A DNA stretch of 64,000 nt, taken from Fistulifera solaris. Taxonomy: Eukaryota. Numbering within the stretch: the stretch's first letter is position 1; every line of letters starts with the position of its first letter. The notes under the pieces were generated by a model. That model was not told the DNA's origin. It did not search any database and was given only the letters and a program-made list of their open reading frames with translations. Of this stretch, positions 18,107 to 36,311 are shown one piece after another. The stretch lies in assembly GCA_030295235.1 (NCBI GenBank), contig AP026164.1, forward strand, positions 1 through 64,000, written 5' to 3'. A program made the position numbers and the translations under genes.

Positions 18107-18814
18107 GAATCGTCGCCAGTCTTTGAACTGTACAGGTCTATTTAGAACAAAACACTGCAGATTGTTTTATATCGCGTTACTTCAACAGTGCAAACAATCT
18201 GAGCTCCTGTGTAACGACGAGTGGCAGATGACATTTCGGCACTGTTTTCTTGTGTCGTGCACACTTTGGTCGGCAAATGTTTGAGTAACAAACATTTATC
18301 CGCGATGCATAATTTGCGAACCAATGAAATTACAGTTAGTTCTTTTGTTTATCCGTATACTTCTCAGATTGCCACACGATGATCCAGGTTGGTAGTTAGT
18401 TGTTAGTTGCTGTAACCTTAGCTGTCTGTCTGTTGTCCTAGTTTGACAAACTGTCGCGCATTGCGCGCGCAGGCAGCCGCAGGATTGGCCGTCTGGCCTC
18501 ATTCCGTTCTCTACTGAACGTTTACGGACACGTGGCACTTCCGGCTTCCGGATCGTTTATACCACACAGCTGCGTACATTCAGTATTACAGTCGTGGGTC
18601 TTGGGTCATTCCACGCGCGCCGCTCCTCATCGCCAGATACGAAATTACTCTAAGCTATGATGTAGTCTTGCGTCCGCGTACCTCACCGAAAAAGATCGCA
18701 GACCGCAGACGCAAACGCGAAATAATCGATCCGCTGCAGCTATACAAAGTATTATTGTTGTTGCGCCTCCTTTTCATCCAACAATAACATTCTATCTTTC
18801 ACACAATTATCACA

Positions 18815-19468
18815 ATGAAGTGGACTATTGCTACATTCATCGGCGCTGCTGCCGTTGCTCAAGCCATTGAGCTCACTCCGGAGAACTTTGACGCTGAGAC
18901 AGCCGGAAAGACTGTGTTTATCAAATACTTCGCTCCTTGGTGCGGTCATTGCAAGAAATTAAAGCCCGATTGGGACAAGTTGATGGAAGAATTCAACAGT
19001 AATCCCACTCAGCTTATCGCTGATGTTGATTGTACTGCTGAAGGAAAGCCTTTGTGTGATGCTGTCGGCGTCCGAGGTTACCCGACTCTCAAATGGGGAG
19101 ATCCGTCGGCCTTGGAGGACTACCAAGGAGGACGTGATTACGAGACTTTGAAGGCCTTTGCCGAGAAGAACTTGAAGCCTGTATGCAGCCCTGCTAACAT
19201 TGACTTGTGCGACGCTGACAAGAAGGCTCAAATCGAGAAGCTCTTGGCCATGCCTGATGCCGAGTTAGAGAAGTCCATTCAAGAGAATGTTGACGCCATG
19301 AAGAAGATCGAAGATGAGTTCAACGAGTTTGTTCAAGGTCTACAAAAGCAATACCAAGATGCCACCTCGAAGAAGGAAGCCGACTTGGCTGCCATCAAGG
19401 ACTCTGGTTTCGGCTTGATGAAGGCGGTCAAGGCGCACAAAGCTAAGGGTGCCAAGGATGAGTTGTAA
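18815..19468 (+). CDS. ER protein disulfide isomerase-like protein (single thioredoxin domain + coiled coil)
   Basis: Signal peptide, FAPWCGHCKKL, VRGYPTLK and C-terminal KDEL. Confidence 0.92.
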   Translation: MKWTIATFIGAAAVAQAIELTPENFDAETAGKTVFIKYFAPWCGHCKKLKPDWDKLMEEFNSNPTQLIADVDCTAEGKPLCDAVGVRGYPTLKWGDPSALEDYQGGRDYETLKAFAEKNLKPVCSPANIDLCDADKKAQIEKLLAMPDAELEKSIQENVDAMKKIEDEFNEFVQGLQKQYQDATSKKEADLAAIKDSGFGLMKAVKAHKAKGAKDEL

Positions 19469-20759
19469 GATTGCATTGAAATAGTCTTAACGGATAGTCA
19501 AAGAATCAAAATAAACCTTTGGGTTCATGACATGTTTGCTGAACGATTCCTGCGCGTGTTAGCTACGCTATCGTAATCGCAAATGAACGTTAGAATCGAA
19601 AAAGAAATATGCGACCTGATATCATTTAATATACTAGCCTAGATCCATGGTGCGGATATTGATATTCGACATCAGTTGGAGTGAGCGGGTCGTTGAGTTA
19701 GGTAATCATGATGAAGTTCTGATGATGTTCTTCCGATAAAAGATTCTCCATCAGAAGAAATTGGGCTGTAATCGAAGGAGCACCAGTCACAGCTCTATTC
19801 TCTTGGAAGACTCACGACCATCGACTACTAAACAAGCGCCCTGGTTGAATACATCAATAATGTACAACCCGCGAAACATTTCAGCAATGTTTCTTTGCGT
19901 TGTTGTGGCCATTGCGCGTATCGGCCTGATCAAGTTGTGACGCGGTAGCATTGTCGTTACATCATTGATGCGTATCAAGTTGGAAGCACTTAAGACACTG
20001 CTCTCCTTATTCGACGGCTAGTCAACTCTACTATATTGCTTACTCCGTGACGTGAACTACCGACGAGAAATACGAGCGAGGAATGGAAAGCTTAATAGCC
20101 TTACATCATTTTTTGACGTCTTGAAGAAACTTTCGTCATTGTCATTCAAGCAGCAATATTCCAAAGAAGCAGATAGTCGTCAAGTCGAATCCCTACTTTC
20201 TCGTAGCGCTCTCGAACCTCAACGATACCACGATAAATTCTCCACAGCAAGACGCACGTCGTTGTTGTGTGAAAGCTCTGCAAATCGTCATGCTGATTTT
20301 GTCACTTGATTTATTGTCGACAAAGGTAACTTCATATCAACTTTCTAGTTCATTTGTTGTTTTGCTTAAACATGACGTCGCATCAGTCTCAGACACGGTC
20401 TCATGGTTATTGCGTTCATTACTGTGGTCATCTGTCTCTATGACCTCAATGCTCTCTGCCGAACAGAGAATGTTCTCCCCCTCATAGTCAGGGCGCCTTC
20501 GCCTTTCTTGACGTTCGTAACCACCTCCTTTGGGAACAGAATCACCTTGTTTATTGCTAGCAAAGATTCGACTGTTGTTGATGATAATAATTGATAATTG
20601 ACTCCATTAAAAAAATGAAAAACGAGTCAGTCCCGACAATGAGTCCCGTATCCCGTGCAATCAATCAGCAATCAGCAATCAGACAATCAGCAATCAGTAA
20701 CCTTAATAGAAAAAGATAGTACTGAATTTTGAGAGTTCAAATACCACAACGACACTTTA

Positions 20760-22089
20760 CACGGACACGGGACAAGACCTTATTATTACCTGGTACACAA
20801 AACATCATTGCATGTTTTTTTTTCTTTCCATCCCCATTTCGCGAGAATGCAATGCATCCACCGCGAGCTTATTTCTTACCAAATCAAAGAGCTTCTGACT
20901 AGCCTTCTGATTGCATCAAATATATTATTTTTCAATGTCGCATCAAGAGATTCAACAGTACATCCGCAATTTGGCGAGTGATGACGACCATGTTCGTGAA
21001 ATCGCCGTCGTGGCTCTCGGTGAGATCGCAGACGAATCCATTGAGGGTCGCAATTTGGTCTTGCAGGCGGGTGCTATGCAAGCAGTACTCTCACAGATCC
21101 ATGAGAAGTCTACCTTGCGCATGGTTCGCGAAGGCTACCCTGACTTTGTCTGCGTTCTGTGACAGGAAGCCCCACATAGCCTTCGAGTTGGTTCGTCTTG
21201 TACTGCCTTACTTGATACAACTAATCCACAATGGGGATCCAGTAATTATGACTGATGCTTGTTGGACGCTCAATTACATCGTGGCTAGCGCTCCTGAGGA
21301 ATATAAGCAAGCAGTTGTCGATGCCGGAATCATTTCCCAGCTGCTTGCCCTCGTTTTGCATACCCCGTAAGTACTTTCTGGCCACACAAGTTCACAATCA
21401 TCAGCTGCCGCTATTTTGTCTCACTCTTGCCCGTCTTTAGCGTGGATATTCAGACCCCGGCACTCATGACTATCGCAGGCATTACTAGCGGCAATGATTT
21501 ACAAACGCAGTATGTTGTCGATAGTAACGCTCTCCCTTGTCTATTGGGTCTTCTCTCGAATCCTCATTCGGATATCCGCAAGACATCATGCACTGCTATC
21601 TCGAACATTACAGCGGGGACTGTGCAACAAATTCAAGCTGTTATTGATTCGCACATCATCTTTCCGCTGATTCAGCTTCTCAGCAGTGCCGAGTTTGGGG
21701 AACGCAAACAAGCCGCTTTTGCCATCTCCAACGCCATTGGTGGAGGAAACCAGCAACAGATCTTGTTTATCGTGAACGAGGGCTGCATGTCGTCCGCTAT
21801 GCGATCTGTTGACAGTTGCTGATGATCAGGTTGTGATGATGACCCTCGATTCCTTGGAGAAAGTTTTGATGGTTGGTGACGAAGAACCTCGACGACTCCT
21901 GATCGCAGCTCAAGGTCTGATTAAAATGGAGAGACTCCAAATGACTTCTTGCAATGACATTATTTCCAAAAAGGCCCATGAGATAATGCTAATGTACTTC
22001 GAAAGTGAAGTAGAAGAAGTTTCCGAAGACGACCTGATTGCTGAAATTGAGCAAGAAGGCAATTTCACGGGAAATGTGGATGCTGAAGA
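20760..22089 (+). repeat. Left arm of a ~1.33 kb inverted repeat
   Basis: From acggacacgggacaagacc to aatttcacgggaaatgtggatgctgaaga; reverse complement of ~32385-33718. Confidence 0.92.
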
Positions 22090-22117
22090 ACATGGAGAGA
22101 CTCCTGTCGCATCCTAG
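20935..22117 (+). pseudogene. Truncated, divergent importin-alpha-like gene, copy A (intron 21367-21440; frameshifts near 21130 and 21790); may be functional if the indels are errors
   Basis: ARM repeats VREIAVVALGEIA, DACWTLNYI, AVVDAGI, TSGNDLQTQYVV, ISNITAGTVQQIQAVID and AISNAIGGG..QI.FIVNEGC..LCDLL, matching importin-alpha from about ARM3 to the C-terminus. Confidence 0.85.
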
Positions 22118-22564
22118 CAACTACATTTTCAAAAAAAGCCAAAGATATGATGCTAATGCTCTTTACCCAAATCACAATTTCATGGGAGATGCGGTGATGC
22201 ATGCCGAACGAAAACTACCACAAGAATAGATAGCATAATATTTCCAATATCTAACAAACACAAATCTCTATATTTTGTACTGTCTTCGTAAATACAATTG
22301 TGAAAGATAACATTCATGGCGGAAATGTTTGCAAATGAAGTTGAATTCTGTTTGACAACGCTATGAGAGCACCAAAGCACACGTTTTATCTCCGGTGCAA
22401 AAGACACTGGCGGCAATCTTTCTTGGGTTTGACAGAAAGTATCCGAAACATGTCTCAGCATCTTCATAAAAATTGACCACATGGACAAGAAAATCGCCAA
22501 AGGAGCGAAACTCACAGTTGATTGCTACGTCGATACGGGTCACGCGCTGGTTGCAATGACGCCA

Positions 22565-23250
22565 CTTTGCAAAGTGGTTCCGTCTATGCGAGACCATCTC
22601 ATCGAATCGAGACAAGGAACGGCGACTGTAGCGTCATCAAGCGACGACTCGGTAGCACCATAAACCATGAAAGACTACATGCTCTTAGAAAGCACCGGGC
22701 GCAGCAAACCTTCAGTAAATATTTCTGAAAAACGAGCGCGACCGAAGTCCCTCCCAGTCTAACACTATCGAAATCGAGTTCGTCCACAAAGCTAATTTTC
22801 AGCGACTTTTCGCAGAAATCTTCATCAGAATTAATTATCGCGAGATAAGATTTGGCTGCTGTACAATTATCATGACAGATCAGCCATCAGTCGACACTTA
22901 CCGAAGCCGCTTTGCAAAGTGGTTCCGTCTAAGCAAGAGCTCCTCATCGAATCGAGACAAGGAACGGAAATTGTTGCGTCATCAAGCGACGACCCGGTAG
23001 CGCCATGAAAGACCACATGCTCATAGAAAGTACCGAGCGCAGCAAACCTTGAGTAATACTCTCTTAAAACGAGCGACCGAAGGCCCTCCCAGTCAAACAC
23101 TATCGAAATCGAGTTCATGCCATAAAGCTAATTTTCGGCGACTTTTCGCAGAACTTTTCATCAGAATTAATGATCGCGAGCTTAGAATTGACTGCTGTAC
23201 AATCATCATGACAGATAAGATAAGAGATCAGCCTTCAGTCGACACTCTTA
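22565..23250. repeat. Tandem duplication of ~345 bp
   Basis: ctttgcaaagtggttccgtct…cagtcgacact at ~22565-22900 and ~22910-23250, moderately diverged. Confidence 0.85.
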
Positions 23251-24477
23251 CTGATATTTTATGATTGTAGTCCATGTCGGTACATCCAAGCGATTCGACG
23301 TGTGGGCGATATATGATAAGAAGTCTAATATCGTATAAAACGTTTACTAGTCAAGAAGAATAAGCTCTCCGGTGCTCTCTGTGGTATCCATTTACCTGGT
23401 ACAGGACATAATATGATCCGAGTTACCCCTGATAGAGAAACACCATATGCTAAGTATCGTGCGTGTTACTTAGGTATTCAAACCATGCTAACGTTACACG
23501 AGCGTTAATTTAGCCGTTGGAAGTATATGTTTCAGCGATGCCCTTCATTCATTATTTATTTGTGACAAGAGACAAGAAGCCAAAACGCGACCGCAACAAC
23601 GCGCGCAGAACAAGAAAAATCATCAAAATGATCGCATTGTTGTTGCATCTCTTCCCCTTTACAAATCATCATTTATCGTTCGAATATTTACTATACTGAC
23701 TGCGCAGAGAAATGAAAGCATTAAGCTATCGACTTCGCAAGAAGAAGCTGCAGGCAAAGCACGCCTTCGTCATCAGAAAGAATCATCGCGGAAGCACGCT
23801 CCTTTCGGAACTGTCGTCGCAGGCGGCGAAAGCTTCCGTGTCTCGCTTGATCGCCAGCCGTCCTTCCGAACAAGCTCATCAGCTCTTTTGCAAATCGATG
23901 AATTGCTTCAGGTCGGGACGCAGGATGATTTGTTGGCGGCCGTCGATTCCCTCAAAACTCTTTTCGCACGGTGTGTGCGCTCTCGAGAAAGCTTTTGATA
24001 TGGCTCGGAAAGAGAACTTGGAATGCTCGCTACTTCAGAATAAGTTGTTGATTCGTTTTCTATCGGGATGCATGCGCTACCGTCGTGATCCAAAAACCCG
24101 GTATATTGCTATGACAGCCATGAACTGTATGAGAGACTGCTCCCATGCCTTGAAATAAACAAAAGCAGTCTCACTTGCTTTCGGAACTCTATTGTCGGAT
24201 TTGTAACGTTCGGTTTTTCGATGTTCTTTGAGGTTCTGCCGATCGATGCATTGGTTGAGAAGTTGTTTTGAGACTTTGTTCGAATCTTTCTACGTTACCA
24301 GAAGGAACTTCAGCGTTACTTCCAGGCCATTAGTTGCGTCCCGATCCGGCACCACCTTGGTGAATAACCAGATTGGCACACAAAGCAACTGGTTGAGGCT
24401 CTGTGGTAGCATTGACTGGACATTCTGGTGGTCTCGTTGTAAAGTTCCAGAGCTAAATCTCTTGCTATCTTAACAAT

Positions 24478-25461
24478 GGTGAGGCGTTCGATGTATCCTT
24501 CCGCTTTCGCCAAAAGGCGGGAGGAATGCGCTTATCGCTTCCGTGTCGCTGTCAGGTTGCGAGCTTGCATCGGAAAGGCTGTTGTATCAACTGTGTTGGA
24601 AAGGCCTCCACGAGAGCGGAACATGGGTTGATCGCAAGGTTCGAATGTATGTAACTGCGTGTCGCCATCGAAATCGACGTGTTCGTAGCTCTTTGAATTG
24701 TCAAGAATGTTCAAAGGATTGCACAATGAGCAGTCTGGTGATAGCTATCCGCTATTTGAAACTTGTATTTCAATGAATGGGAACGGTGAACGACAGAGCA
24801 ACCATTGGGGATACGGTACCAGTATCCTTGGTGCACGCGAGTGTCGTGAAATACTGCCCCTCAGTTTGAGTGGAAGAAGATTGTGGTTGCGAGAGGGACT
24901 CTGGCGGTCGAGATGGACTTTTCGTTGCAGATGTTTGTCGAGTGATCAAAGTTAGCTGTCAAGTGAAAGTGGTCTTACTTCGCGGCGGACATGTGATGTC
25001 GATTCCGAGATTTTCCAAAGGGAGTTATCAGCTTGTTGATGAATGGCATGTCGAAGCTTGTTGTGCTGATCGATTAAGATGCATTTGACTGGATTGACTT
25101 GTCTTTGAATTTCTGTGATCAAAATTTGCTTGGTTTTGATTGGAGCCCGGTTGCAATGCGTTAGCATAGTAGAGAAAGTAATACTATAAAAGGACAAGTT
25201 GAAAAGGACATCAATTTATAAAGCAACAGATCACGGATTGTAAGTTTGCAATCACTGGAAATGGTTTGCCGCTGGCATTTGGATTCCAGGATGGTCGACT
25301 TCAAACTGATTTCGATGTGTCGACAATTTCTTTTCTACCCCATTATATCAGCTCGAGACAGCCATACAGACCTTTTCGGAAGGAAGCTCAACGTCCAAAC
25401 ACTGTGAATACATCCCGTGTTCCTGAAACAGTCTGGGATCTCGATCTGGGTCATAGAATCC
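24478..25461. repeat. ~980 bp direct repeat, copy 1
   Basis: gtgaggcgttcgatgtat…tcgatctgggtcatagaatcc recurs at ~31171-32157. A ~95-bp internal piece recurs a third time at 25462-25557. Confidence 0.9.
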
Positions 25462-25559
25462 AGTGTCGTGAAATACTGCCTCTCAGTTTGAGTGGAAGAG
25501 GATTATGGTTGCAAGAGGGACTCTGGCGGTCGAGATGGACTTTTCGTTGCAGATGTTCA

Positions 25560-25910
25560 AGAAATGCTGCAATCGGTGATTTGGGTCAAACAAAGAATCT
25601 GTGATAGTTCTAGAAATTTTGGAATTCGTGTTTGGGTCAAACGAAGTTTCTTTGGTCGTTCCAGAGACTCTGGAAAGTGTGTTTTGTATGAAACAGAGAT
25701 TCTGTGCTTTTCCAGAAATTCTGGATTAAGTGATTTTGGTCAAACAGAGATTCTGTGGATCTTCCAGAAATTCTGGAGCCGGTGTTGTGGGCCCAACAGA
25801 CATGAATATCTAAACTCTAAACGGTAGAAACAGAGATGAATAATCGGTGATTGGGTCAAACAGAAATTATGTGGAATGGTAGTTCAGTAATTCTGGAAAA
25901 TGTGCTTTGT
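25560..25910. repeat. Degenerate ~52-bp tandem array with palindromic cores (about 5-7 units)
   Basis: Units resemble aaacagagattctgtgg…ttccagaaattctggaa…tgggtc. Confidence 0.85.
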
Positions 25911-26379
25911 TAGAAAGGCGCCTTTCGGCGTCTGCCCATCGCTCGCTTTGCTCGCGAGCGAATAATATACGGAGTATAACCCAAAATTGTCACGGAAATG
26001 CGGATAGCGGGCAGACTACTAGGGACTCAGCCAATTTAGCTGCACGACCTAATGCAAACTCCGATCACCAACTCGGAAGCACCCGGGGCGAAACCTCATG
26101 GGAGTGGCCCAAGGGTCTTTGCACGATTTGGATTGATCGTGAAGGCGTGAAAGGTTTGCAAGCAACGCGATACAAGAATGTGAGAGCCACATACATGAGA
26201 TCAGAACGTCAAGATAAAACAAGACCTAGTCCGATGGCAAGTGACATTCTCGGCGGAATCATCACCCAGTGAGATTCCACTTTCTTCATTTGTCGGATTT
26301 GTAAAGGCTTTATAAATTTGTTGTTTGGAAAACTTTGACTGTTTATCGTCTTAGCTCTACCAGATACTTCCTCTTCTGT

Positions 26380-27758
26380 TGTTCGCGAAACGTGGCGACT
26401 TGGTTGACAGAAAATACTTCCAATTTCTGTCCGTCGATACGTGAGGCATTTAGTCCGTACCTGGTATTTATTAAGGTAGAAGTAAACACCCGGTACGTAA
26501 AACTCAAAATGATAAATCGGCGCATTAAGGAAGATACCACTGAAGCACCGCGTCAGTGGCGACACTTCACGCTCGAAGAGAGCGACAGCGACAAGAATGC
26601 TGCAGGAGCAGGGGCTTTTGCTGAGCCTGGGGTTCCTAGCATGGGCTTTTCAATTCCGTCATTGAATCCAGCTCCTTTGCCGCGGCGATGGGCTTCTCGT
26701 TTGCTGTCCCTGCAAAGCGCCTTCTAACGACAGCAAAAACCTTTGTTTTTGGGGCTGCACCTGCTGCCTCCACGGCACAGTTCACTGGTAGTGCTTTCGG
26801 AGATCCTTCCGCATCAACACCCTCAGTCTCTGGGGAGGAAGTGGAGCGCTTGGAGAATCCACGAAAAGAAGATTTATTCAATATACACAAGGACATTGTT
26901 AGCACGACTGATGTTCATGAAAAAGAACGATTGATTTACAAGGCGATGCGCAACATTGGAAAATTCAAAAAGACATTTATGATGCCACGAAAAATACTTC
27001 TTCGGTGGCTTCTGAAACTACTGCAGCTCCCTCTTCCGGGACGTCAGCAACAGCTCCTATGGCTGCGCATACAATTGCTACAAGTAGCTCAGCCACATCG
27101 AGCTGTAGATTCTCTTTGGTGCTGCCGCTGGCTCGGCTGCAACATCCACCTCTGACTCCTTCCTCGAGTGCTGGATTCTCGTTTGGTGCGGCCAGCGACC
27201 CCGCTGCATCCTTTACCACTCCTTTCTCGAGCGGTGGATTCTCTTTTGGTGCTGCCGCGGTGCCGGCTGCATCATCCTCTGCACAAACTTCACCCGTCGA
27301 TAACACAACCGCTCCTGCGAAGGATCCAGCTCCCAACCACGGCCGAACCCAGCAATGAAAACTTCGACGGCCCATGCAGTAGCACTCATACAGCAAATTG
27401 CGGATCCAGATTGGGATGATATTGGAAGCTTTGAACCTGTCACGATTTATCGTAGCGAAAATGGAACATGGACGCCTTTGCAACAGAAAACAAAACTCCG
27501 ATTACAAACATCCAAGACCGATTCGGGTTGTCATCGTATGGTTGCTCAAAATATGATGGGAATAGTGGCCATAAATATGCGCATACAGTCGGGAATGTAA
27601 TTTATATTTGCGGAAAAACCCGGCAAGCGGGGACCTGTGGGGACAATTGTCTTTGGAGGGATTAATGATGCTGTGAAAGGTCGGCGTTCATGATCAAAGC
27701 TAAAGCTGATGTTGCAAAACAATTGCAGAAGCAGTTAGATAAATTGTCCCGTAAATGA
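26380..27758 (+). pseudogene. Degraded Nup50/Nup2-like nucleoporin (FG repeats + C-terminal Ran-binding domain)
   Basis: FG-type motifs GFSFGA (x2), TFVFGA, MGFSF and SAFG. RanBD-like W…KLRLQ…HRMVAQNMMGIVAINMRI…KPGKRG…AKQLQKQLDKL. In-frame TAA at 27598-27600 plus several frameshifts. Confidence 0.7.
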
Positions 27759-28389
27759 GCTTCTGTTGTGATGTAAGGAGGCCTTCGATCGTAATACATT
27801 CTCCTCGTGACTTGCACACTTTGTTACCGGTATGATAAGACGCTTGTACATTACATGATAACTTTTCGATCGTAATCATTGCTAATATATAATACCTGGT
27901 AGTATTTTGGCTTGCCATTGTGCCTGTATCGTTTCTGCTTTTTTTGGCATTTTGTTGTTGCGTTGTTGCCGTTGTCGTGCCAAGTCTCAAATGTAGATAT
28001 AAAAGTTGCTATCGTGTATTGCAAACGGCTGCCACATCGTCCGTGCGATGATACCATTTACTTGTACCTAGTACTTTCTCCTTGTAGCTGAACGTGTCGT
28101 TCTTGGATTCGTCGTATGCTCGTAAGGTAGGGATCCGAGCGATCCCTGTAGTAGTTCGGGTTTCTCTATCTTTTCTGCGGACGAGCAAAATCTGCTTTCA
28201 AAAGTTATTATATCTCCAAGAACATGCTTTGGACGAAAAAATCAATCTTTACATCAATCAATCTTTAACTCCTGTTTAAAATGTCGATCACAATCTCGAC
28301 CTCAAAAATCTATAGTAAATATGCAAATTGGGACGGAGCCCGATATTAAAAGCCCAACTTCCCTCGCAAAACTGGACATCTCCCTAAGG

Positions 28390-28790
28390 AACACCACATT
28401 CTTATCGTCACGTCGCGACACATACATATTCCGGCCGAATCATATAAACGACGTCGACCCATATACATTCTATTCACGGCTTCAAGTACGAACTGTCCGC
28501 GGCAATACCGCCAGCGACGCAATTCTCTTCGAGTTTCAAGAAGAAGCACCGATTGGATACGAAAACCTGCGTTTAGTCGAAGCTGAAAGACAAACAATAC
28601 CAACAATTAATTATCCGCTCTTCTCCTCAGCTCAAGAATTCGAACACGATATTCTTGATAAAGATATCGAGAAAACGACTTGGTTGATGATCATTGCAAG
28701 ACGATTCTCTTGTTTTTTTGTTGTTATCGTTCAGAGGAACAAAAAGTAACCACCCCATTTTTTTTGAAAAATTTGATAAAAAACTCCGCA
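28390..28790 (+). mobile_element. Probable degraded Helitron RepHel fragment
   Basis: YIFRPNHINDVDPYTFYSR…FEFQEEAP…IPTIN… then, after a frameshift, DDHCKTILLFFCCYR. This resembles the Y..RP..LE….EF / F…HP / IP / YAK..LLLF.PFR series between the Helitron Rep and helicase domains (judged by eye). Confidence 0.5.
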
Positions 28791-29869
28791 CAAATTATTA
28801 GGCATTTTTGCTACATTTTAAATTTAGTGTAACAGTACCACTTGGACACTCTCCTGTCACAGTCGCAAATAAATGAAGTTTCCAGTAAGCCCTAGCATCG
28901 CTATAGTGCCAGAAAGTACTTCTACGACATGGGATTCACCGAGGCTGAAACCCGGAAGATACAACGTATGCTACACGTCACATCACTTTTCCGCCTCACA
29001 AAAAGGCGCAGCCCACAATCATGTCAACGTGACTGCAGATTGCAGCTGATCGAAAACTCGCGCGAAACGACGTACGCAAAAAGAGAAAAATGATTCGCAT
29101 TCCGATGTCGTCGTCGAAACAAGCAAAAAAATTGTAACAAGGCGCTCAATGAAATTTAAAGACTGGGTTCGAATGAACTAAGTCAACATGTTTGATAAAG
29201 ACAGTGATCGGCAGAAGTGATAAGCTGAAAGCCAAAAGTCGATAAAGTTTGAAAGACCCAACTTGGTTGTGATGGGCAACATTCGAACAAATGAGCAGTC
29301 AGAGAAGCAAAGCCTTTATGCTTTCCGTCTAGACTGACTCGAAACTGAAAAAGCGCCATTTGGGTCGAAACTGGACTCGATACCACAATAGTTCTTACGA
29401 AGGAAAAACAGCGACGAAGTTTCCAGAGTCAAAGGAAACGTGAATAGTCGATTCCTTACCATGAATTGGTGATTCAAATCAATCGAAGCTGAATTGCGTA
29501 ATAGCGACGTGCAAAGACGCAGGAAGTCGTCAGGCATAGCACAGAGTTGCTGAGAATCAATTTCTCTCGAAACGTAACAAATGACCAAAAGTCAAGCCAC
29601 ACTTAAAGAATGGCAAAGCAATGATATACTCTTGCCGAAGCAATCTGATGGCGATATAAAAGAGAAAAAAAATGCCGCAGGTGCAAACGAAAGTATGTTT
29701 AGCAAGGGGGCGAAACTGCTAAGGTATAACAGGCACATAGTGCGACTAAATTTAATACAAGAGCTATTGCTCAAATTTTTTACAAAGAAAATCCCACAGT
29801 GGTAAATGTAAGGTGAATATGACAGTTAACGCGCTCAAATGCAGGTGCAAAGAACAGCATGAGCAACTA

Positions 29870-30665
29870 TAGCTGTGGAACTTCCAGAATTTCTGGAAAC
29901 GTTGTTGTGGTTCAAACAGAGATTCTGTAGTAGTTCCAGAAATTCTGTAATCGGTAATTTTGGCAATACAAAAGTCTTTGGGGGTTCCAGAAAATCTGGA
30001 ATACATGGTTGGGGTCAACAGAGACTCCATAGTAGTTCCTGAAAGTCTGAAATTGTTGTATTGGGCAAATGAAAGTCCATGGGCTTTCCAAAAATTTAGG
30101 AGGCAGTGGTTCCGGTCAAACAGAGGTTATGTGGTCATTCCAGAAAATCTGGAATTGGTGTTATGGCTCAAACAGAGATTCTGTGGTCATTCCAGAATTT
30201 CTGGAATCGGTTTTATGGGTCAAACAGAAATTCTTTTATTGTGCAAGAAATTCTGGAAGATGAATCGAAGCTTTTGAAACAAACAGAGATGAGTCGGTGG
30301 TCGTTCCAGAAATTCTTAAAAGCGTATTTTGAAACAAACAGAGATTCTGTAGGTGTTCCAGAAAATTTGTAATACGTGGTTTGGGTCAACAGAGATTACC
30401 ATAGTAGTTCCAGAAAGTCCGGAATTGTTGTATTGGGTCAAACGAAAATCTATGGTCCTTCCAAAAATTCTGGAATCGAAGCTTTGGAAACAAATAGAAA
30501 TTTTGGAATCGGTGTTATGGGTCAAATAGAGATTCTGTGCACTTTCCAGAAATTCTGGAATCGAAGCTTTTGAAACAAACAGAGATTTGGTGGTCGTTCC
30601 AGAATTTCTGGAAAGAGTGCTTTGTAAGAAACAGAGATTCTGTAGTAGTTCGAGAAAATCTGTAA
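29870..30665. repeat. Degenerate ~52-bp tandem array with palindromic cores (about 15 units)
   Basis: Consensus approximately aaacagagattctgtggtcattccagaaattctggaatcggtgttatgggtc. Confidence 0.92.
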
Positions 30666-31170
30666 TTTTTATACTCCGTACTTCGGAACAAATAGAGTCA
30701 TTATTGCGTGCGATGTGCGATGTTGGAGATTGACGGAACGGAGAAAGAATGAATGAAGATCATCGAATAATCGAATGTCGCCGCGCGTACGTTTGCGCAT
30801 CTGTCCGCGAACGGCGACGACTCGTGTCTGAGACTGACGAGACTGCTTCGATGCGCCGACGACCATGATGCTGAACGCTGAACCGCCGTTAAAAATACGC
30901 AACCCGATCATCGAAATGCGAAAGGCGCAAGACACAATACAACTTTTAAGATTGGATCTACATCAGCAAGTACTGGTAGGACTATGTTTTTAAGTGGCCG
31001 AAGTAGCGGTGGAAGGTAGAAGGCAGTCCAAAATTTTTTGTCGAGTCCTCCAATCATAAAATACTTGGAGATGGCATCCAGCGGTTGAGGTGTGGTGTTG
31101 TGAAACCGGATGCGGCAAGTTGATGTTGGACTTGTTGCCTGCAAATAATGTTGTTGATAACAATATAACA

Positions 31171-32157
31171 GGTGAGGCGTTCGATGTATACTTTCGCTTT
31201 CGTCAAAAAGCTGGAGGAATGTTTTCATTGCTACCTTGTCGCTGTCAGGTTGCGAGATTGCATCGGTAAGGCTGTTGTATCATCTGTGCTGGAAAGGCCT
31301 GAAAGAGAGCGGAACATGGGTTGATCGCAAGGTTTGATTGTCTGTAACTGCGTATTGCCATCGAAATCGTCGTGTTCGTAGCTCTTTGAATCGATGAGAA
31401 TGTTCAAAGCATTGCACAATGAGCAGTCTGGTGATAGCTTTCCGCTGTTTGAAACTCGAATTCCAATAAACGGGAACAGTGAACGACGGAGCAACCATTG
31501 GGGATACGGTATCAATATCCTTGGTGCAAGCGAGAGTGTCGTGAAATACTGCCTTTCAGTTTGAGTAGAAGAGGATTGTGGTTGCGAGAGGGACTCTGGC
31601 GGTCGAGATGGACTTTTACCGTTGCAGATGTTTGTTGAGTGATATCAAAGATAGCTGTCAGGTGAAAGTGGTTTTTACTTGCGGCGAAGTGTGATGTCAA
31701 TTTCCGAGATTTCCCAAAGGGAGTTATCAGCTCGGTGATGAATGTCATGTCGAAGCTTGTTAAGCTGATCGATTAAGATGCATTTGACTGGATTGACTTG
31801 TCTTTGAATCTCTGTGATCAATTTTGCTTGGTTTTGATTGGAGCCCGGTTGCAATGCGTTAGCATAGTAGAGAAAGTAATACTATAAAAGGACAAGTTGA
31901 AAAGGACATCAATTTATAAAGCAACAGATCACGGATTGTAAGTTTGCAATCACTGGAAACGGTATGCTGCTGGCATTTGGATTCCAGGATGGTCGACTTC
32001 AAACTTATTTCGATGTGTCGACAATTTCTTTTCTACCCCATTATATCAGCTCGAGACAGCCATACAGACCTTTTGAAGGAAGCTCAACGTCCAAACACTG
32101 TGAATACATCCCGTGTTCCTGAAACAGTCTGGGATCTCGATCTGGGTCATAGAATCC
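31171..32157. repeat. ~980 bp direct repeat, copy 2
   Basis: Matches 24478-25461. The right-hand ~400 bp is nearly identical; the left part is visibly diverged. Confidence 0.9.
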
Positions 32158-32308
32158 TTCGTCCTCTGGATCACAATAGAATTTAAAGGGGATGAACATA
32201 GCGCGATGACAATGTGGGCAACCGAGTCGTATCTCGCGATCAAGGTAATTTGGGTTGCGAACATATTCAATGGTGGCCTCAGTCCTTTCTCTTGGTTTTC
32301 TGCCAGCT

Positions 32309-33541
32309 CTATGCGGGATCGCCCGGTTCATTATACCCATCTAAGCTAGCTTCCTCTACATCTTGGAAGGGTTCAATTACTGTATCTTCAACATCCACAT
32401 TTCCCGTGAAATTGCGTTCTCGCTCCATTTCAGCAATCAGTTCGTCTTCGGAAACTTCTTCTACTTCACTTTCGAAGTACATTAGCATTATCTCATGGGC
32501 CTTTTTGGAAATAATGTCATTGCAAGAAGTCATTTGGAGTCTCTTCATTTTACTCAGACCTTGAGCTGCGATCAGAATGCGTCGAGGTTCTTCGTCACCA
32601 ACCATCAAAACTTTCTCCAAGGAATCGAGGGTCATCATCACAACCTGATCATCAGCAACTGTCAACAGATCGCATAGCGGCATGCAGCCCTCGTTCACAA
32701 TAAACAAGATCTGTTGCTGGTTTCCTCCACCAATGGCGTTGGAGATGGCATAAGCGGCTTGTTTGCGTTCCCCAAACTTCGGCACTGCTGAGAAGCTGAA
32801 TCAGCGGAAAGATGATGTCGCGAATCAATAACAGCTTGAATTTGTTGCACAGTCCCCGCTGTAATGTTCGAGATAGCAGTGCATGATGTCTTGCGGATAT
32901 CCGAATGAGGATTCGAGAGAAGACCCAATAGACAAGGGAGAGCGTTACTATCGACAACATACTGCGTTTGTAAATCATTGCCGCTAGTAAGGCCTGCGAT
33001 AGTCAAAAGTGCCGGGGCCTGAACATCCACGCTAAAGACGGGCAAGAGTGAGACAAAAAACAGCGACAGCTGGTATTTCGCGAACTTGGCGTGACCAGAA
33101 AGTACTTACAAGGTATGACGAGCGAGGGCAAGCAGCTGGGAAATGATTCCGGCATCGACAACTGCTTGCTTATATTCCTCAGGAGCGCTAGCCACGATGT
33201 AATTGAGCGTCCAACAAGCATCAGTCATAATTACTGGATCCCCATTGTGGATTAGTTGTATCAAGTAAGGCAGTACAAGACGAACCAACTCGAAGGCTAT
33301 GTGGGGCTTCCTGTCACAGAACGCAGACAAAGTCAGGGTAGCCTTCGCGAACCATGCGCAAGGTAGACTTCTCATGGATCTGTGAGAGTACTGCTTGCAT
33401 AGCACCCGCCTGCAAGACCAAATTGCGACCCTCAATGGATTCGTCTGCGATCTCACCGAGAGCCACGACGGCGATTTCACGAACATGGTCGTCATCACTC
33501 GCCAAATTGCGGATGTACTGTTGAATCTCTTGATGCGACAT
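32309..33541 (-). pseudogene. Truncated, divergent importin-alpha-like gene, copy B (intron 33032-33109; several frameshifts)
   Basis: Same ARM motifs as copy A, with near-identical exon 1 translation. Different C-terminal tail (…EEASLDGYNEPGDPA). Confidence 0.85.
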
Positions 33542-33718
33542 TGAAAAATAATATATTTGATGCAATCAGAAGGCTAGTCAGAAGCTCTTTGATTTGGTAA
33601 GAAATAAGCTCGCGGTGGATGCATTGCATTCTCGCGAAATGGGGATGGAAAGAAAAAAAAACATGCAATGATGTTTTTGTGTACCAGGTAATAATAAGGT
33701 CTTGTCCCGTGTCCCGTG
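32385..33718 (-). repeat. Right arm of a ~1.33 kb inverted repeat
   Basis: Reverse complement of 20760-22089. Confidence 0.92.
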
Positions 33719-34009
33719 TGCGTGTGAGCTGTCGTTAATTGATCAGTGCCGAATTTTCCTCCTATCAAAATTGCTAAATCAGATTTTCTGCTTTACCATA
33801 CCAAATGGATTTTCACAGACTTTCCGTCTGATTCAAAACGCTGGTTGCTTCAACTCACGACTGGGTTTTAGTCAAAGACTTACAGATACTGGTACTGATG
33901 GTACTCCTTCATACTCCGTATGGTATTTTCCCAGCCGCGACGATCGATTCTGTTACGGAGTACCTTGATTCGATGATTCATAAATTACTAGCCTCTTGCA
34001 AAGCGCACA

Positions 34010-34896
34010 ATGAAGCCAGTTTCAACATTAACAACCATACTAATTCTCCTTCATTTGAATGTAGAGAAAGCGGCCGGCAATTCACTTTTCATGGGATTAG
34101 TTGGGAGTGATTTCGTTCTTCTCGCTGCTGATACATTTGTCACTCAATCCTGGCAGATTCAAACAGTACAAGATCCCATTCGAGTGCATCGTAACATGGC
34201 TTTTGTCAGCTCGAGTCAGCGCTTATTGAATATTGTTGAAACGCATGCGATCGCAGAGGAATACAATCAACTAGACTCGGTCGGATCCGATGTAACAATT
34301 GTGAAGGCAACAACCGGTCTCATTCAGCAGAAAACGCCTCCTTCCTTGCAAGTTAAAGGAATGGCGCAGTTTCTTCGACAATGTTTAATGCAACAAGATG
34401 CTGAAACAGGTTGTTTAGTCGCAGGAATGATGGAACGCAATCAATACGACGAAAGCATAGACGATGACGACCCCTTCGCGGGTCACGTTGTACAATCGCA
34501 ACTGTCACAAGTGTTGACGACTGCGGATCGCCTACTTCCTCCTTTGCCAGATGCATCTCTTGCTACTAGTTACCAAGCTGTCGCCGTAGACAACATGAAG
34601 GAACCTCTCTACCAGCCATGTTTATATTGGCTAGACGCGCACGGTTCTCTGTTGACTGTTCGTTACGCAGCAATAGGCTACGCGAGTTCCTGGATGTGGG
34701 CTTGGATCGATCAAAAATACCGTCCAGATATGACGTTGACTGAGGCAATCTCGCTTCTCACTGAAGGTTGGAGGACGTTACAAGCGTCACGATCCTTTTG
34801 CAATCCAAACTTTGTTTAAAATACATGGATGCAGACGGAAACTGGCATGTCGTTGATGAGGAGAGTGTTGGGGGCGCGCTTACCAATTGCTACTGA
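34010..34896 (+). CDS. Divergent 20S proteasome beta subunit (PSMB2/Pre1-like) with N-terminal signal peptide (frameshift near 34816)
   Basis: MGLVGSDFVLLAADT, CLVAG, LYWLDAHGSL…YAAIGYAS…IDQKYRPDMTLTEAISLL; shifted frame ends F.LKYMDADG. Confidence 0.75.
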
Positions 34897-36311
34897 TGGT
34901 CATTACAAACGAAAGCGCGCCAATTGTTTATGCGAGGCAACAACTGCGCGCGCTTTCTCGTTTGGTTTGCGATCGCCAAATATGAATCGATAAGACTTGT
35001 GTTCAAAGGACGACCAGAGTCATTCGGATCTATTCCTTCCACTAAAGAAATTAAGCGATGTCGAGTCGGAAAGAATGCATTCTTAGAATTTGGAACGTCT
35101 TGATGCTAATACGTTTACAATCGAAGGCCATAGGCCATAGTCAGCTACCGCTTTAAAATTTCAAATGCGCTAATAATGACGTTTGGAAAAAATACGTTTC
35201 AAGTAGAAGAGATAGCATAGACTGTTGAAATTTGAAACTCTACGGTGCATTGATATTAGAGCTCTGACACAGAACAGCATTGTGTCGGGGGCTTCGAGAG
35301 AAAGCCAAGTCGTAAATCGCTCCATATGGTAATCTGTTACGAGGATTCAGGTCTCGAGTGGTTTTTGTTGGTTAACAATCATGGGCACATTGTTCCCGAG
35401 AATTCACATCAGCAGATAACTTGGCACCCTTCTGTATGATCAAAGGGGGTGCTCTAGTCTAACTGTGAGAGTCGTTATCCCCTATCCCCGGTTACGTTAG
35501 GGTGGAAACCCGTTGTTGTGGTCTTCAAGCTAACTTTCATCTTTAGCAACATTGGCATTCCGCATTAACTAAACAAGCCTTGACATTGACAACTAGACAA
35601 CGGACTACGGAGTAACTTGACATGCCGCCCTCGGAGGATCATCATCTCAGAATCAAGCATCGAACAAGAAAAAAGTGAGAAACGCTTAACGCAAAACCGT
35701 AAGCGACTGAATTGTACAGTCTGCCCTATTCTCCTGTTGAACTTGTGCCCGGTCAAGAGTCAAAAGCCTAATCACGACTACTAGTCGTGATCGTTTATAT
35801 CTTTCACAGATGAGCCTCTAGGTAAAAACTGTGCGTGTACTTTTACGGTCACATTGTCGCGCGTTCGGATCGGATTCCGGAGTGAAAGTGAAAGTGAATG
35901 GTTAATTCGGCCGTTACAGAGATATTACAATCCAGAACGACTGCGACACGAACCGTGTCAGAAACTGGCACTCGTGCACATTGCCTCCCATAGTAAATGC
36001 GGACAATTCTTTTAGTGATTAACATAAATCAGTAGTCTTCGGCTCACCATCATTTCATTCGTTGTCTTCCTACACTTTTCTTAAGAGTAAAACGTAAAAC
36101 GCCCCCGTCGAAGTCGTCGAAGGCGAGTTTCTCTCTTTCGCTCTTACATCGCAAATCATCTCCAATAGCAGGAAAACGGCCGCAAATCTCTCGAACGCCC
36201 AAAAAAACGGGTCTCGGTGGCGAGCAGCAGTCTTTTAAAAAATCGCAAGATTGCACAAAAATAATTTCCTTTTCTTATTTGATTGCACACTTGAATCACT
36301 AAACGAAAGCC

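Follow-up and report, generated by a model that had tools for sequence, protein, structure and literature searches.

The stretch of DNA analysed here, in the following called the window, comprises 64,000 nucleotides (nt) of contig AP026164.1 (assembly GCA_030295235.1) of the diatom Fistulifera solaris and contains, at 20759-33719, an interval in which partial copies of an importin-alpha-like gene, of a Nup50-family gene and of a further ARM-repeat gene lie close to each other. In the original prediction, made from the letters alone, this interval had been taken for a mobile-looking cassette with two interacting components of nuclear import. However, the importin-alpha-like gene at its right-hand end, FisN_5Lu021 (the core gene), belongs to a family natively lacking the IBB domain and the first two ARM repeats, and the Nup50-family copy has lost the domain characteristic of its parents. 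We hold it to be probable, if by no means secure, that the interval arose by DNA-level duplication and rearrangement round this native gene in the L lineage, with most of the pieces being non-functional and constraint being relaxed or altered.

The database proteins closest to the genes of the interval are the Fistulifera solaris hypothetical proteins FisN_5Lu017, FisN_5Lu020 and FisN_5Lu021, and the interval is located on 'L' chromosome 5 of this species. According to the available excerpt of PMC5935921, Fistulifera solaris is an allopolyploid with 9007 homoeologous gene pairs, and 2441 of its genes are found on a single chromosome of a pair, 33 of them on chromosome 5 'L'. The locus tags of the Nup50 parents described below are paired (35Lh047 and 35Hh047), and the genes of the interval carry the letters 'Lu', of which the 'u', to judge from the tag pattern, would mean that no homoeolog is annotated.

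The importin-alpha-like core gene and its inverted copy

The core gene and the inverted repeat comprise the following features:

20759-22092, plus strand: left arm of the inverted repeat, holding an incomplete copy of the core gene in opposite orientation and corresponding to FisN_5Lu017
32381-33719, minus strand: right arm, with 176 nt of upstream DNA and the first ~375 codons of the core gene
33541 to ~31950, minus strand: core gene FisN_5Lu021, with an IBB-less importin-alpha-like ARM domain, an acidic linker and a C-terminal domain
22083-22193, plus strand: perhaps a further copy of the last ARM segment, older and diverged, directly after the left-arm boundary

The 1.33-kb inverted repeat carrying an upstream region and an importin-alpha-like gene, as already described in the original prediction, stands: 20759-22092 and 33719-32381 are identical at 1299 of 1343 columns, with 13 gap columns. 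Each arm consists of 176 nt of upstream DNA, an ATG (20935 and 33541, respectively), exon 1, a GT..AG intron and exon 2. In the left arm the intron lies at ~21363-21432 and a new tail extends up to a stop at 22115-22117; in the core gene, exon 1 spans ~33541-33114 and the intron reaches up to ~33040, followed by exon 2. Both arms have Pfam matches to Arm and to the importin-specific Arm_3, the Arm_3 scores of the open reading frames (ORFs) in the window being 26.1 and 25.3 bits as compared to a cut-off of 28.8 bits, which is exceeded by a relative with 79% identity (P0012, 43.5 bits). A profile built from 19 importin-alpha proteins matches, within the window, both arms only (positions 126-482 covered). 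Further importin fragments outside the arms were considered and dropped, as the profile found none, its match at 22087-22194 having an expectation value (E) of 9.6. The segment at 22083-22193, to which this match belongs, might at best be an older copy of the last ARM segment; it forms a direct repeat (D14) with 71% identity over 45 nt, and residues 164-207 of P0012 match it in tblastn at 41% (E 2.9e-4).

By tblastn, a homolog of 568 amino acids (aa), P0039, matches the window with its residues 1-67, 66-212 and 226-330 at 33541-32477, and with residues 441-528 and 540-566 of its C-terminal part at 32337-31956. Since P0039 aligns from Met1 through the C-terminal ORF, the right-hand gene can be taken to span 33541 to ~31950; an in-frame TGA at 32048-32046 lies ~30 codons ahead of the end in P0039. 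Met1 of the homolog falls on the Met of the window (20935 and 33541), which is the equivalent of canonical ARM3 (alignment A3). The arms had been proposed to be captured truncations of importin-alpha; with the start codon of the homolog aligned in this way, the right arm is instead part of a family in which IBB and ARM1-2 are natively absent and which begins at the ARM3 equivalent.

In P0039, no match to the IBB domain (PF01749) was obtained at E up to 1, and five Arm stretches are present. Its ARM model has a predicted local distance difference test score (pLDDT) above 90 for residues 1-333, and the fold search gave 2yns_A as the best match (E 6.2e-24, 46% identity, ~333 of ~422 target columns aligned), with every chain listed in the top 50 ranks being an importin-alpha or karyopherin-alpha. 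About eight ARM repeats (ARM3-10) are present in the IBB-less family, as compared to ten in canonical importin-alpha. The conserved Trp and Asn positions of importin-alpha ARM repeats bind cargo with a nuclear localisation signal. In ARM3, the canonical AVWALGNIAG is replaced by AVVALGEIAD in the window and by AVSVLGEIAD in P0039, and in ARM4 the canonical ATWTLSNFCRG by ATLTLSAFCDR or ATLTLSRFCRG (both in alignment A3). The Asn is kept in ARM7 and ARM8, and the Trp is kept in ARM7 of P0039 alone and replaced in the Fistulifera copies.

The C-terminal domain of ~125 aa has no Pfam family, and the P0039 model has a pLDDT of 25-63 there. A phmmer search with the ORF at 32044-32340 (minus strand) against 1.84 billion representatives found three proteins at E <= 0.001, namely FisN_5Lu021 itself, P0039 (E 8.3e-10) and P0040 (E 9.9e-4), so that among these representatives the domain has a clear match in one other protein, P0039. 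P0040 (712 aa) carries many tandem copies of the motif W..YCD..G.G.YDP..H..FL, one unit of which resembles the stretch YCDPEDEGFYDPDRD in the C-terminal domain of the core gene (E 9.9e-4), and this motif may define the repeat type of the domain. A metagenome scan with P0039 yielded one confirmed locus out of 55 pattern matches (L001, on a 2147-nt contig), where 1050-1964 encodes a distant importin-alpha-like sequence with 30% identity to residues 46-343 of P0039.

Turning to the two arms, FisN_5Lu017 (P0002) agrees with the left arm at 216 of 216 residues, given that one base is skipped at ~21790. Past the arm boundary, the right copy goes on like P0012 (…DVEVEDTV.EPFQD…) and the left copy takes a new tail of 10 residues. 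The right copy is the more complete of the two arm genes, and the left arm is a copy of the right-arm gene.

The 29 substitutions between the arms are distributed unevenly: there are none in the first 595 nt (20759-21353), and all of them fall within the remaining ~740 nt (3.9%). The identical stretch suggests a recent gene-conversion tract laid over an older duplication. The segment 21354-21413, which covers the last part of exon 1 as well as the intron, has 12 substitutions between the arms together with several indels, and this cluster, located at the end of the identical stretch, may mark the boundary of the conversion tract. The coding differences amount to 4.8 synonymous differences at 240.8 sites and 16.2 nonsynonymous differences at 821.2 sites, which gives a ratio of the two proportions (pN/pS) of 0.98; purifying selection between the arm copies is not detectable, which we read as relaxed constraint.

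Frameshifts in the window have to be read with caution. Three public runs of one 2015 study (X1 to X3) were compared with 18300-35800 as Logan contigs, their type being only guessed. X1 behaves like genomic DNA, with all 30 bins covered and a single-copy contig depth of 18-21; X2 and X3 are RNA-like, and since they have no cover over most of both arms, nothing was inferred from them there. Against the window, X1 contigs have 0 other letters and 1-3 gaps per 1.1-1.9 kb, and the count rises to 10 other letters with 15 gaps in 26416-29007. Position 27455 gives Ser in the window, which is contradicted by the deposited protein (Asn) and by each of the three runs. Because contigs and deposited proteins disagree with the window at indels, its frameshifts are unsafe as evidence for dead genes, and the annotation may have been made on an assembly other, or better polished, than the one from which the window stems. 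The interval had been said to hold no intact recognisable gene; the deposited annotation, however, has gene models there (FisN_5Lu017, FisN_5Lu020 and FisN_5Lu021), the discrepancy consisting mainly of indels. A +1 frame step is common to both arms at ~21130 and ~33346, and as it sits in the identical stretch, a single consensus error could explain it in both.

The Nup50-family copy and other pieces of the interior

Between the arms lie the following features, with the strand given for the gene-derived pieces:

26509-27761, plus strand: Nup50-family paralog FisN_5Lu020, with FG repeats and a TAA stop at 27598-27600
23706-24131, plus strand: fragment of FisN_7Lh362 (P0037; E 1.1e-42), with an internal stretch of ~550 nt missing
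24471-25461, minus strand: direct-repeat copy A, a partial copy of the 3' end of the core gene (from ~codon 501) with downstream DNA
31166-32157, minus strand: direct-repeat copy B, the last ~65 codons of the core gene and the downstream region
22561-23216: tandem duplication with a 336-nt unit, 1.9 copies, 86% matches
25462-25557: 96-nt repeat of 24840-24935 and 31535-31632
25552-25800: tandem array 1, 51-52-nt unit, ~4.4 copies, with a palindromic core
29882-30666: tandem array 2, 52-nt unit, ~11.4 + 2.7 copies, of the same family and orientation as array 1
25989-26445: fragment of a multi-copy sequence, X1 depth ~750 (~35x single-copy)

FisN_5Lu020 (P0034, 363 aa) has, in a word-indexed search, only FisN_35Lh047 and FisN_35Hh047 as relatives (3 proteins, 12 candidates). 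In these two parents (P0035 and P0036), the Pfam domain NUP50 (PF08911) is found at residues 3-67 with E 4e-9 and 2e-9, and according to the titles of the PDB entries 3tj3, 2c1m, 2c1t and 1un0 it is the N-terminus of Nup50 that is bound to importin-alpha. FisN_5Lu020 has no Pfam match, NUP50 included. It can be aligned with the parents from their residues 44-52 onwards, collinearly up to the C-terminus, and no trace of parent residues 1-43 was found in the ~2.5 kb upstream (24000-26500). The copy carries five FG and four FSF[GAS] motifs, with a repeat of 63-nt period at 27098-27277. The TAA at 27598-27600 cuts it in the middle of the C-terminal domain, residues 268-388 of P0035 matching 27328-27681 at 66%, and the last ~20 residues of the parents are recognisable in another frame up to 27761. 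In order to reconcile FisN_5Lu020 with the window, at least six frame steps as well as short out-of-frame runs are needed.

The parents differ from each other at 34 columns; of these, the copy shares the residue of the 35L parent at 16, that of the 35H parent at six and neither at 12 (one-sided binomial p ~0.03 for 16/22, by our own arithmetic), which speaks for descent of the copy from the L-lineage gene once the progenitors had split. The presumed Ran-binding region is, in its first half, almost the same in both parents (82 of 83 columns), and the copy departs from them at 23 of these 82; changes at columns invariant in the parents suggest that their strongest constraint has been lifted or changed in the copy. 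The original prediction of a nucleoporin relic with FG repeats and a RanBD is borne out in part: the FG repeats and the kinship with the Nup50 family are there, but the RanBD was recovered in none of the tests. It gave no Pfam match at E up to 10 in the read-through translation or at E up to 1 in the parents, and no sequence match in the PDB; the parent model, with a pLDDT of 40.5, is too low for a fold search. The RanBD label of FisN_5Lu020 stems solely from the UniRef name 'RanBD1 domain-containing protein'.

Of the 546 aa of its parent FisN_7Lh362, an uncharacterised ARM-repeat protein with a basic KRRRVE end, the fragment at 23706-24131 represents approximately the first 85 and residues ~270-325. 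Contigs ~88% alike to the fragment have 549-560 extra letters at 23966 and diverge after 24131, and contigs like FisN_7Lh362 occur at high depth in the RNA-like runs (127-214 in one of them). The parent matches Vac8 chains (E 4.7e-6), its Pfam Arm match lies under the cut-off of that family, and in the Atlas the clusters closest to it are those of TMCO6 (score 0.96, 184 of 256 features). A neutral segmental duplication of parents that are simply neighbours does not account for the Nup50 and ARM pieces, since their parents are tagged to chromosomes 35 and 7, respectively. As had been stated, truncated or derived copies of nuclear-transport genes are clustered in the interval. The idea of a cassette of two interacting partners is nevertheless weakened, as the Nup50 copy lacks the N-terminal importin-binding domain, the family at the arms has lost the IBB domain and the ARM3-4 signature, and no mark of mobility was found.

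The direct repeats and palindromic arrays noted earlier in the interior are likewise present. Copies A and B of the direct repeat are identical at 919 of 999 positions; residues 501-563 of P0039 match copy A at 25455-25267 (tblastn), and an in-frame TGA is common to both copies (25350-25348 in A, 32048-32046 in B). Each unit of the arrays bears the palindrome TTCCAGAA-A-TTCTGGAA. None of the repeats of the interval (direct, tandem and 96-nt repeats, arrays) has a copy elsewhere in the window. The 52-nt array family and the fragment at 25989-26445 are multi-copy in the genome: depths in X1 range from 324 to 912 over the arrays and this fragment, as compared to ~20 for single-copy sequence (439 in the bin 25308-25891, 324-623 over array 2). 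The fragment at 25989-26445 is also present in the RNA-like runs (record 9 of X2, with 30 other letters and 6 gaps in 457 nt) and gave no match in Pfam, Rfam or the Atlas, the Atlas query being the ORF at 25883-26269. Contig joints that link the two arrays, with sides 24-49 nt long and in most cases foreign or unassigned letters in between, are read as other genomic copies of the array family and not as deletion alleles. The tandem duplication at 22561-23216 contains short ORFs on both strands without a family match.

The interval is flanked as follows:

18788-19468: thioredoxin-domain ORF (Pfam), left flank
33992-34819: proteasome-subunit ORF (Pfam), right flank

These correspond to the PDI-like and proteasome genes named in the original prediction. 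Of 24 ORFs of at least 200 aa, only one lies within 19.5-34 kb and 23 in the rest of the window; the window is gene-dense outside the interval, which forms an ORF-poor gap. A subtelomeric position was considered and dropped, TTAGGG and CCCTAA runs being absent from the window. A (CAATCAG)x5 microsatellite is located at 20662-20697, 60 nt beyond the left end of the inverted repeat. In the thioredoxin-domain ORF, 215 nt (18995-19211) are skipped in one contig of an RNA-like run, and two diverged versions of this gene occur at high contig depth (maximum 1123).

Mobile elements and the origin of the interval

The interior was scanned with Pfam in all six frames; of 145 ORFs of at least 45 aa, 120 were covered (3 arm ORFs and the 22 ORFs of the arrays being excluded), and nothing over a curated cut-off was found, the best E being 0.018. 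No helicase, Rep, transposase, reverse transcriptase or integrase was matched in these ORFs, and the Helitron-like fragment of the original prediction was not recovered; a Helitron was rejected, with neither a Rep nor a helicase family at E up to 0.5 in the same set. The flanks at 20759 and 33719 have no direct repeat in common that could be a target-site duplication, and with no transposase found in the ORFs scanned either, a foldback or composite transposon was rejected. A long-terminal-repeat retrotransposon was rejected for the 1-kb direct repeat, which encodes the C-terminal domain of the core gene and between whose two copies no reverse transcriptase or integrase was matched in the ORFs scanned. 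Finally, as the intron is kept in the arms and no poly(A) tract follows the Nup50 stop, the copies are best regarded as DNA-level and retrocopies were discarded. Rfam, over 19500-35000, returned only sub-threshold hits to mir-3167 (29.6 versus 86 bits) and rli117 (23 versus 87 bits). The description of the interval as a mobile-looking cassette thus finds no counterpart in a transposase, reverse transcriptase, Helitron domain or target-site duplication.

The duplication and rearrangement that we favour would have started from the native core gene FisN_5Lu021, a member of a small importin-alpha-derived family. Its first 1.33 kb would have been copied in inverted orientation, resulting in the left arm FisN_5Lu017, and its last ~1 kb would have been copied directly, resulting in repeat copy A. 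A 5'-truncated copy of the Nup50 gene of chromosome 35L would have been inserted between these copies, and a fragment of an ARM gene with the chromosome-7L FisN_7Lh362 as its closest deposited protein would have been inserted as well, in a region that also holds arrays of a 52-nt repeat of genome-wide occurrence. Recent gene conversion between the arms would have rendered their first 595 nt identical. The left arm, copy A and the ARM fragment are probably non-functional, and the core gene and the Nup50 copy may be evolving under relaxed or altered constraint.

Several observations weigh against this account. The deposited FisN_5Lu020 is an open frame of 363 codons despite a residue divergence of ~25% from the parents, which hints at past or present selection, and contigs of the RNA-like runs fit the own sequence of the copy at 26734-27107 (0 other letters) and 27318-27533 (1 other letter), which suggests, with the run type guessed, that FisN_5Lu020 is transcribed. 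The pN/pS of the arms is based on 21 coding differences, and the frameshifts that make genes look dead are unreliable. In addition, three ARM or nuclear-transport pieces from different chromosomes lie within 11 kb, which is more thematic than expected from random duplication; we put the probability of a foreign fragment at this site being a nuclear-transport gene at roughly 1 in 100.

Another reading is that of a functional and fast-evolving nuclear-transport locus, from which one or more IBB-less importin-like proteins and the Nup50 paralog, remodelled at its N-terminus and truncated in the RanBD, would be expressed. These would serve as decoys of nuclear transport or modify it dominantly, be it in a genetic conflict or as a defence against viruses or retroelements entering the nucleus. 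We consider this rather unlikely, even though it would make sense of the thematic gathering of pieces with parents on chromosomes 35, 7 and 5, of the conservation of the IBB-less family with an intact 568-aa member (P0039), and of the open Nup50-copy frame with contigs from its own locus; a pN/pS of ~1 is also expected from a mixture of positive and purifying selection, and the available excerpt of PMC8645118 provides a precedent in Drosophila. However, the Nup50 copy is without the N-terminal NUP50 domain, the family has lost the Trp and Asn of ARM3 and ARM4, the Fistulifera copies also the Trp of ARM7 and ARM8, and both the frame step common to the arms and the in-frame TGA common to the direct-repeat copies weigh against it. 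A bolder version of this idea, according to which raphid diatoms possess an undescribed importin-alpha-derived family (without IBB and ARM1-2, with an altered NLS groove and a new C-terminal domain) whose amplification in the L lineage, together with a new Nup50 without its importin and Ran ends, gave rise to a fast-evolving conflict locus directed against viruses, retroelements or meiotic drivers, is in our opinion distinctly unlikely.

Capture of the Nup50 fragment, and perhaps of the other pieces (transduplication), by a non-autonomous element with the 52-nt arrays as subterminal repeats would explain why the Nup50 copy is flanked to its left and right by arrays of a high-copy family (25552-25800 and 29882-30666) and has a high-copy fragment directly upstream (25989-26445). 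Yet the two arrays are in direct and not in inverted orientation, none of the 120 interior ORFs scanned matches a transposase, Rep, helicase or reverse transcriptase, 26476-29395 has a single-copy-like depth in X1 (25-43), and the kept intron and missing poly(A) make retrocopying unlikely, so that we regard such a capture as quite improbable. The least probable of the explanations is an assembly artefact, in which the inverted repeat or its placement would stem from the misjoining of repeated or divergent copies and the interval as written would not exist. The indels of the window against the contigs, both in general and over 26416-29007, would be in line with it, as would the junctions of the arms, which none of the contigs listed spans, and the low depth of the right-arm bins (4.8-6.5); the latter, however, is expected if the 109 contig records that fit both arms are each assigned to one position. 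Furthermore, 29 positions distinguish the arms, whose four ends all run into unique sequence, letters of the right-arm type (21719, 21771, 21921 and 21929) are found in a read contig, and the deposited annotation contains two distinct proteins, one fitting each arm.

Relation to known systems and significance

Compared with canonical importin-alpha, the family of the core gene is homologous over ARM3-ARM10, with diatom-like proteins being 62-67% identical over a 118-aa query (~ARM6-8); in contrast, it is natively without IBB and ARM1-2, the Trp and Asn of ARM3 and ARM4 are replaced, and an acidic linker and the C-terminal domain of ~125 aa are added. An engineered counterpart exists in the delta-IBB importin-alpha of crystallographic work, 'Importin alpha 7 delta IBB' being among the best fold matches of P0039. 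As to Nup50, Nup2 and Nup61, the island copy is collinear from parent residue ~50 onwards and has kept the FG repeats, but differs from them in the missing NUP50 domain, the TAA in the middle of the C-terminal domain and the changes where the parents are near-invariant. The parent FisN_7Lh362 resembles TMCO6 and Vac8-like ARM proteins, which can be taken as a lead only, and what the window contains of this gene is a broken part.

Gene-bearing palindromes, e.g., on sex chromosomes, are homogenised by arm-to-arm gene conversion. The arms in Fistulifera are similar in carrying a gene and in showing 595 nt without substitutions beside a part with 3.9% divergence; they differ in that they are merely 1.3 kb long with a spacer of 10.3 kb, that one arm is truncated and that conversion would have to be deduced from the pattern of substitutions. 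Truncated nuclear-transport genes are also known from genetic conflict, Segregation Distorter of Drosophila involving a truncated RanGAP. The recurrent duplicates of nuclear-transport genes in Drosophila covered by the available excerpt of PMC8645118 are likewise extra, diverged or truncated copies in one lineage, and are stated there to arise via RNA intermediates. In contrast, the arms in Fistulifera keep their intron and there is no poly(A), which places the duplication at the DNA level, and neither drive nor an expression bias is known for them.

If duplication and rearrangement round a native gene is the true account, the interval would be an example of how a subgenome of an allopolyploid diatom builds a private region out of partial duplicates. 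It would also be a warning that indel errors can give expressed genes the look of relics. What most deserves to be pursued is the importin-alpha-like family without IBB, together with its new C-terminal domain; a limited search by titles and abstract starts found no literature on importin genes in Fistulifera solaris. Editing of this species with ribonucleoproteins of the clustered regularly interspaced short palindromic repeats (CRISPR) system is reported in the available excerpt of PMC13276009, and a lineage-specific Nup50 copy beside such a family would make the hypothesis of nuclear-transport conflict testable outside animals.

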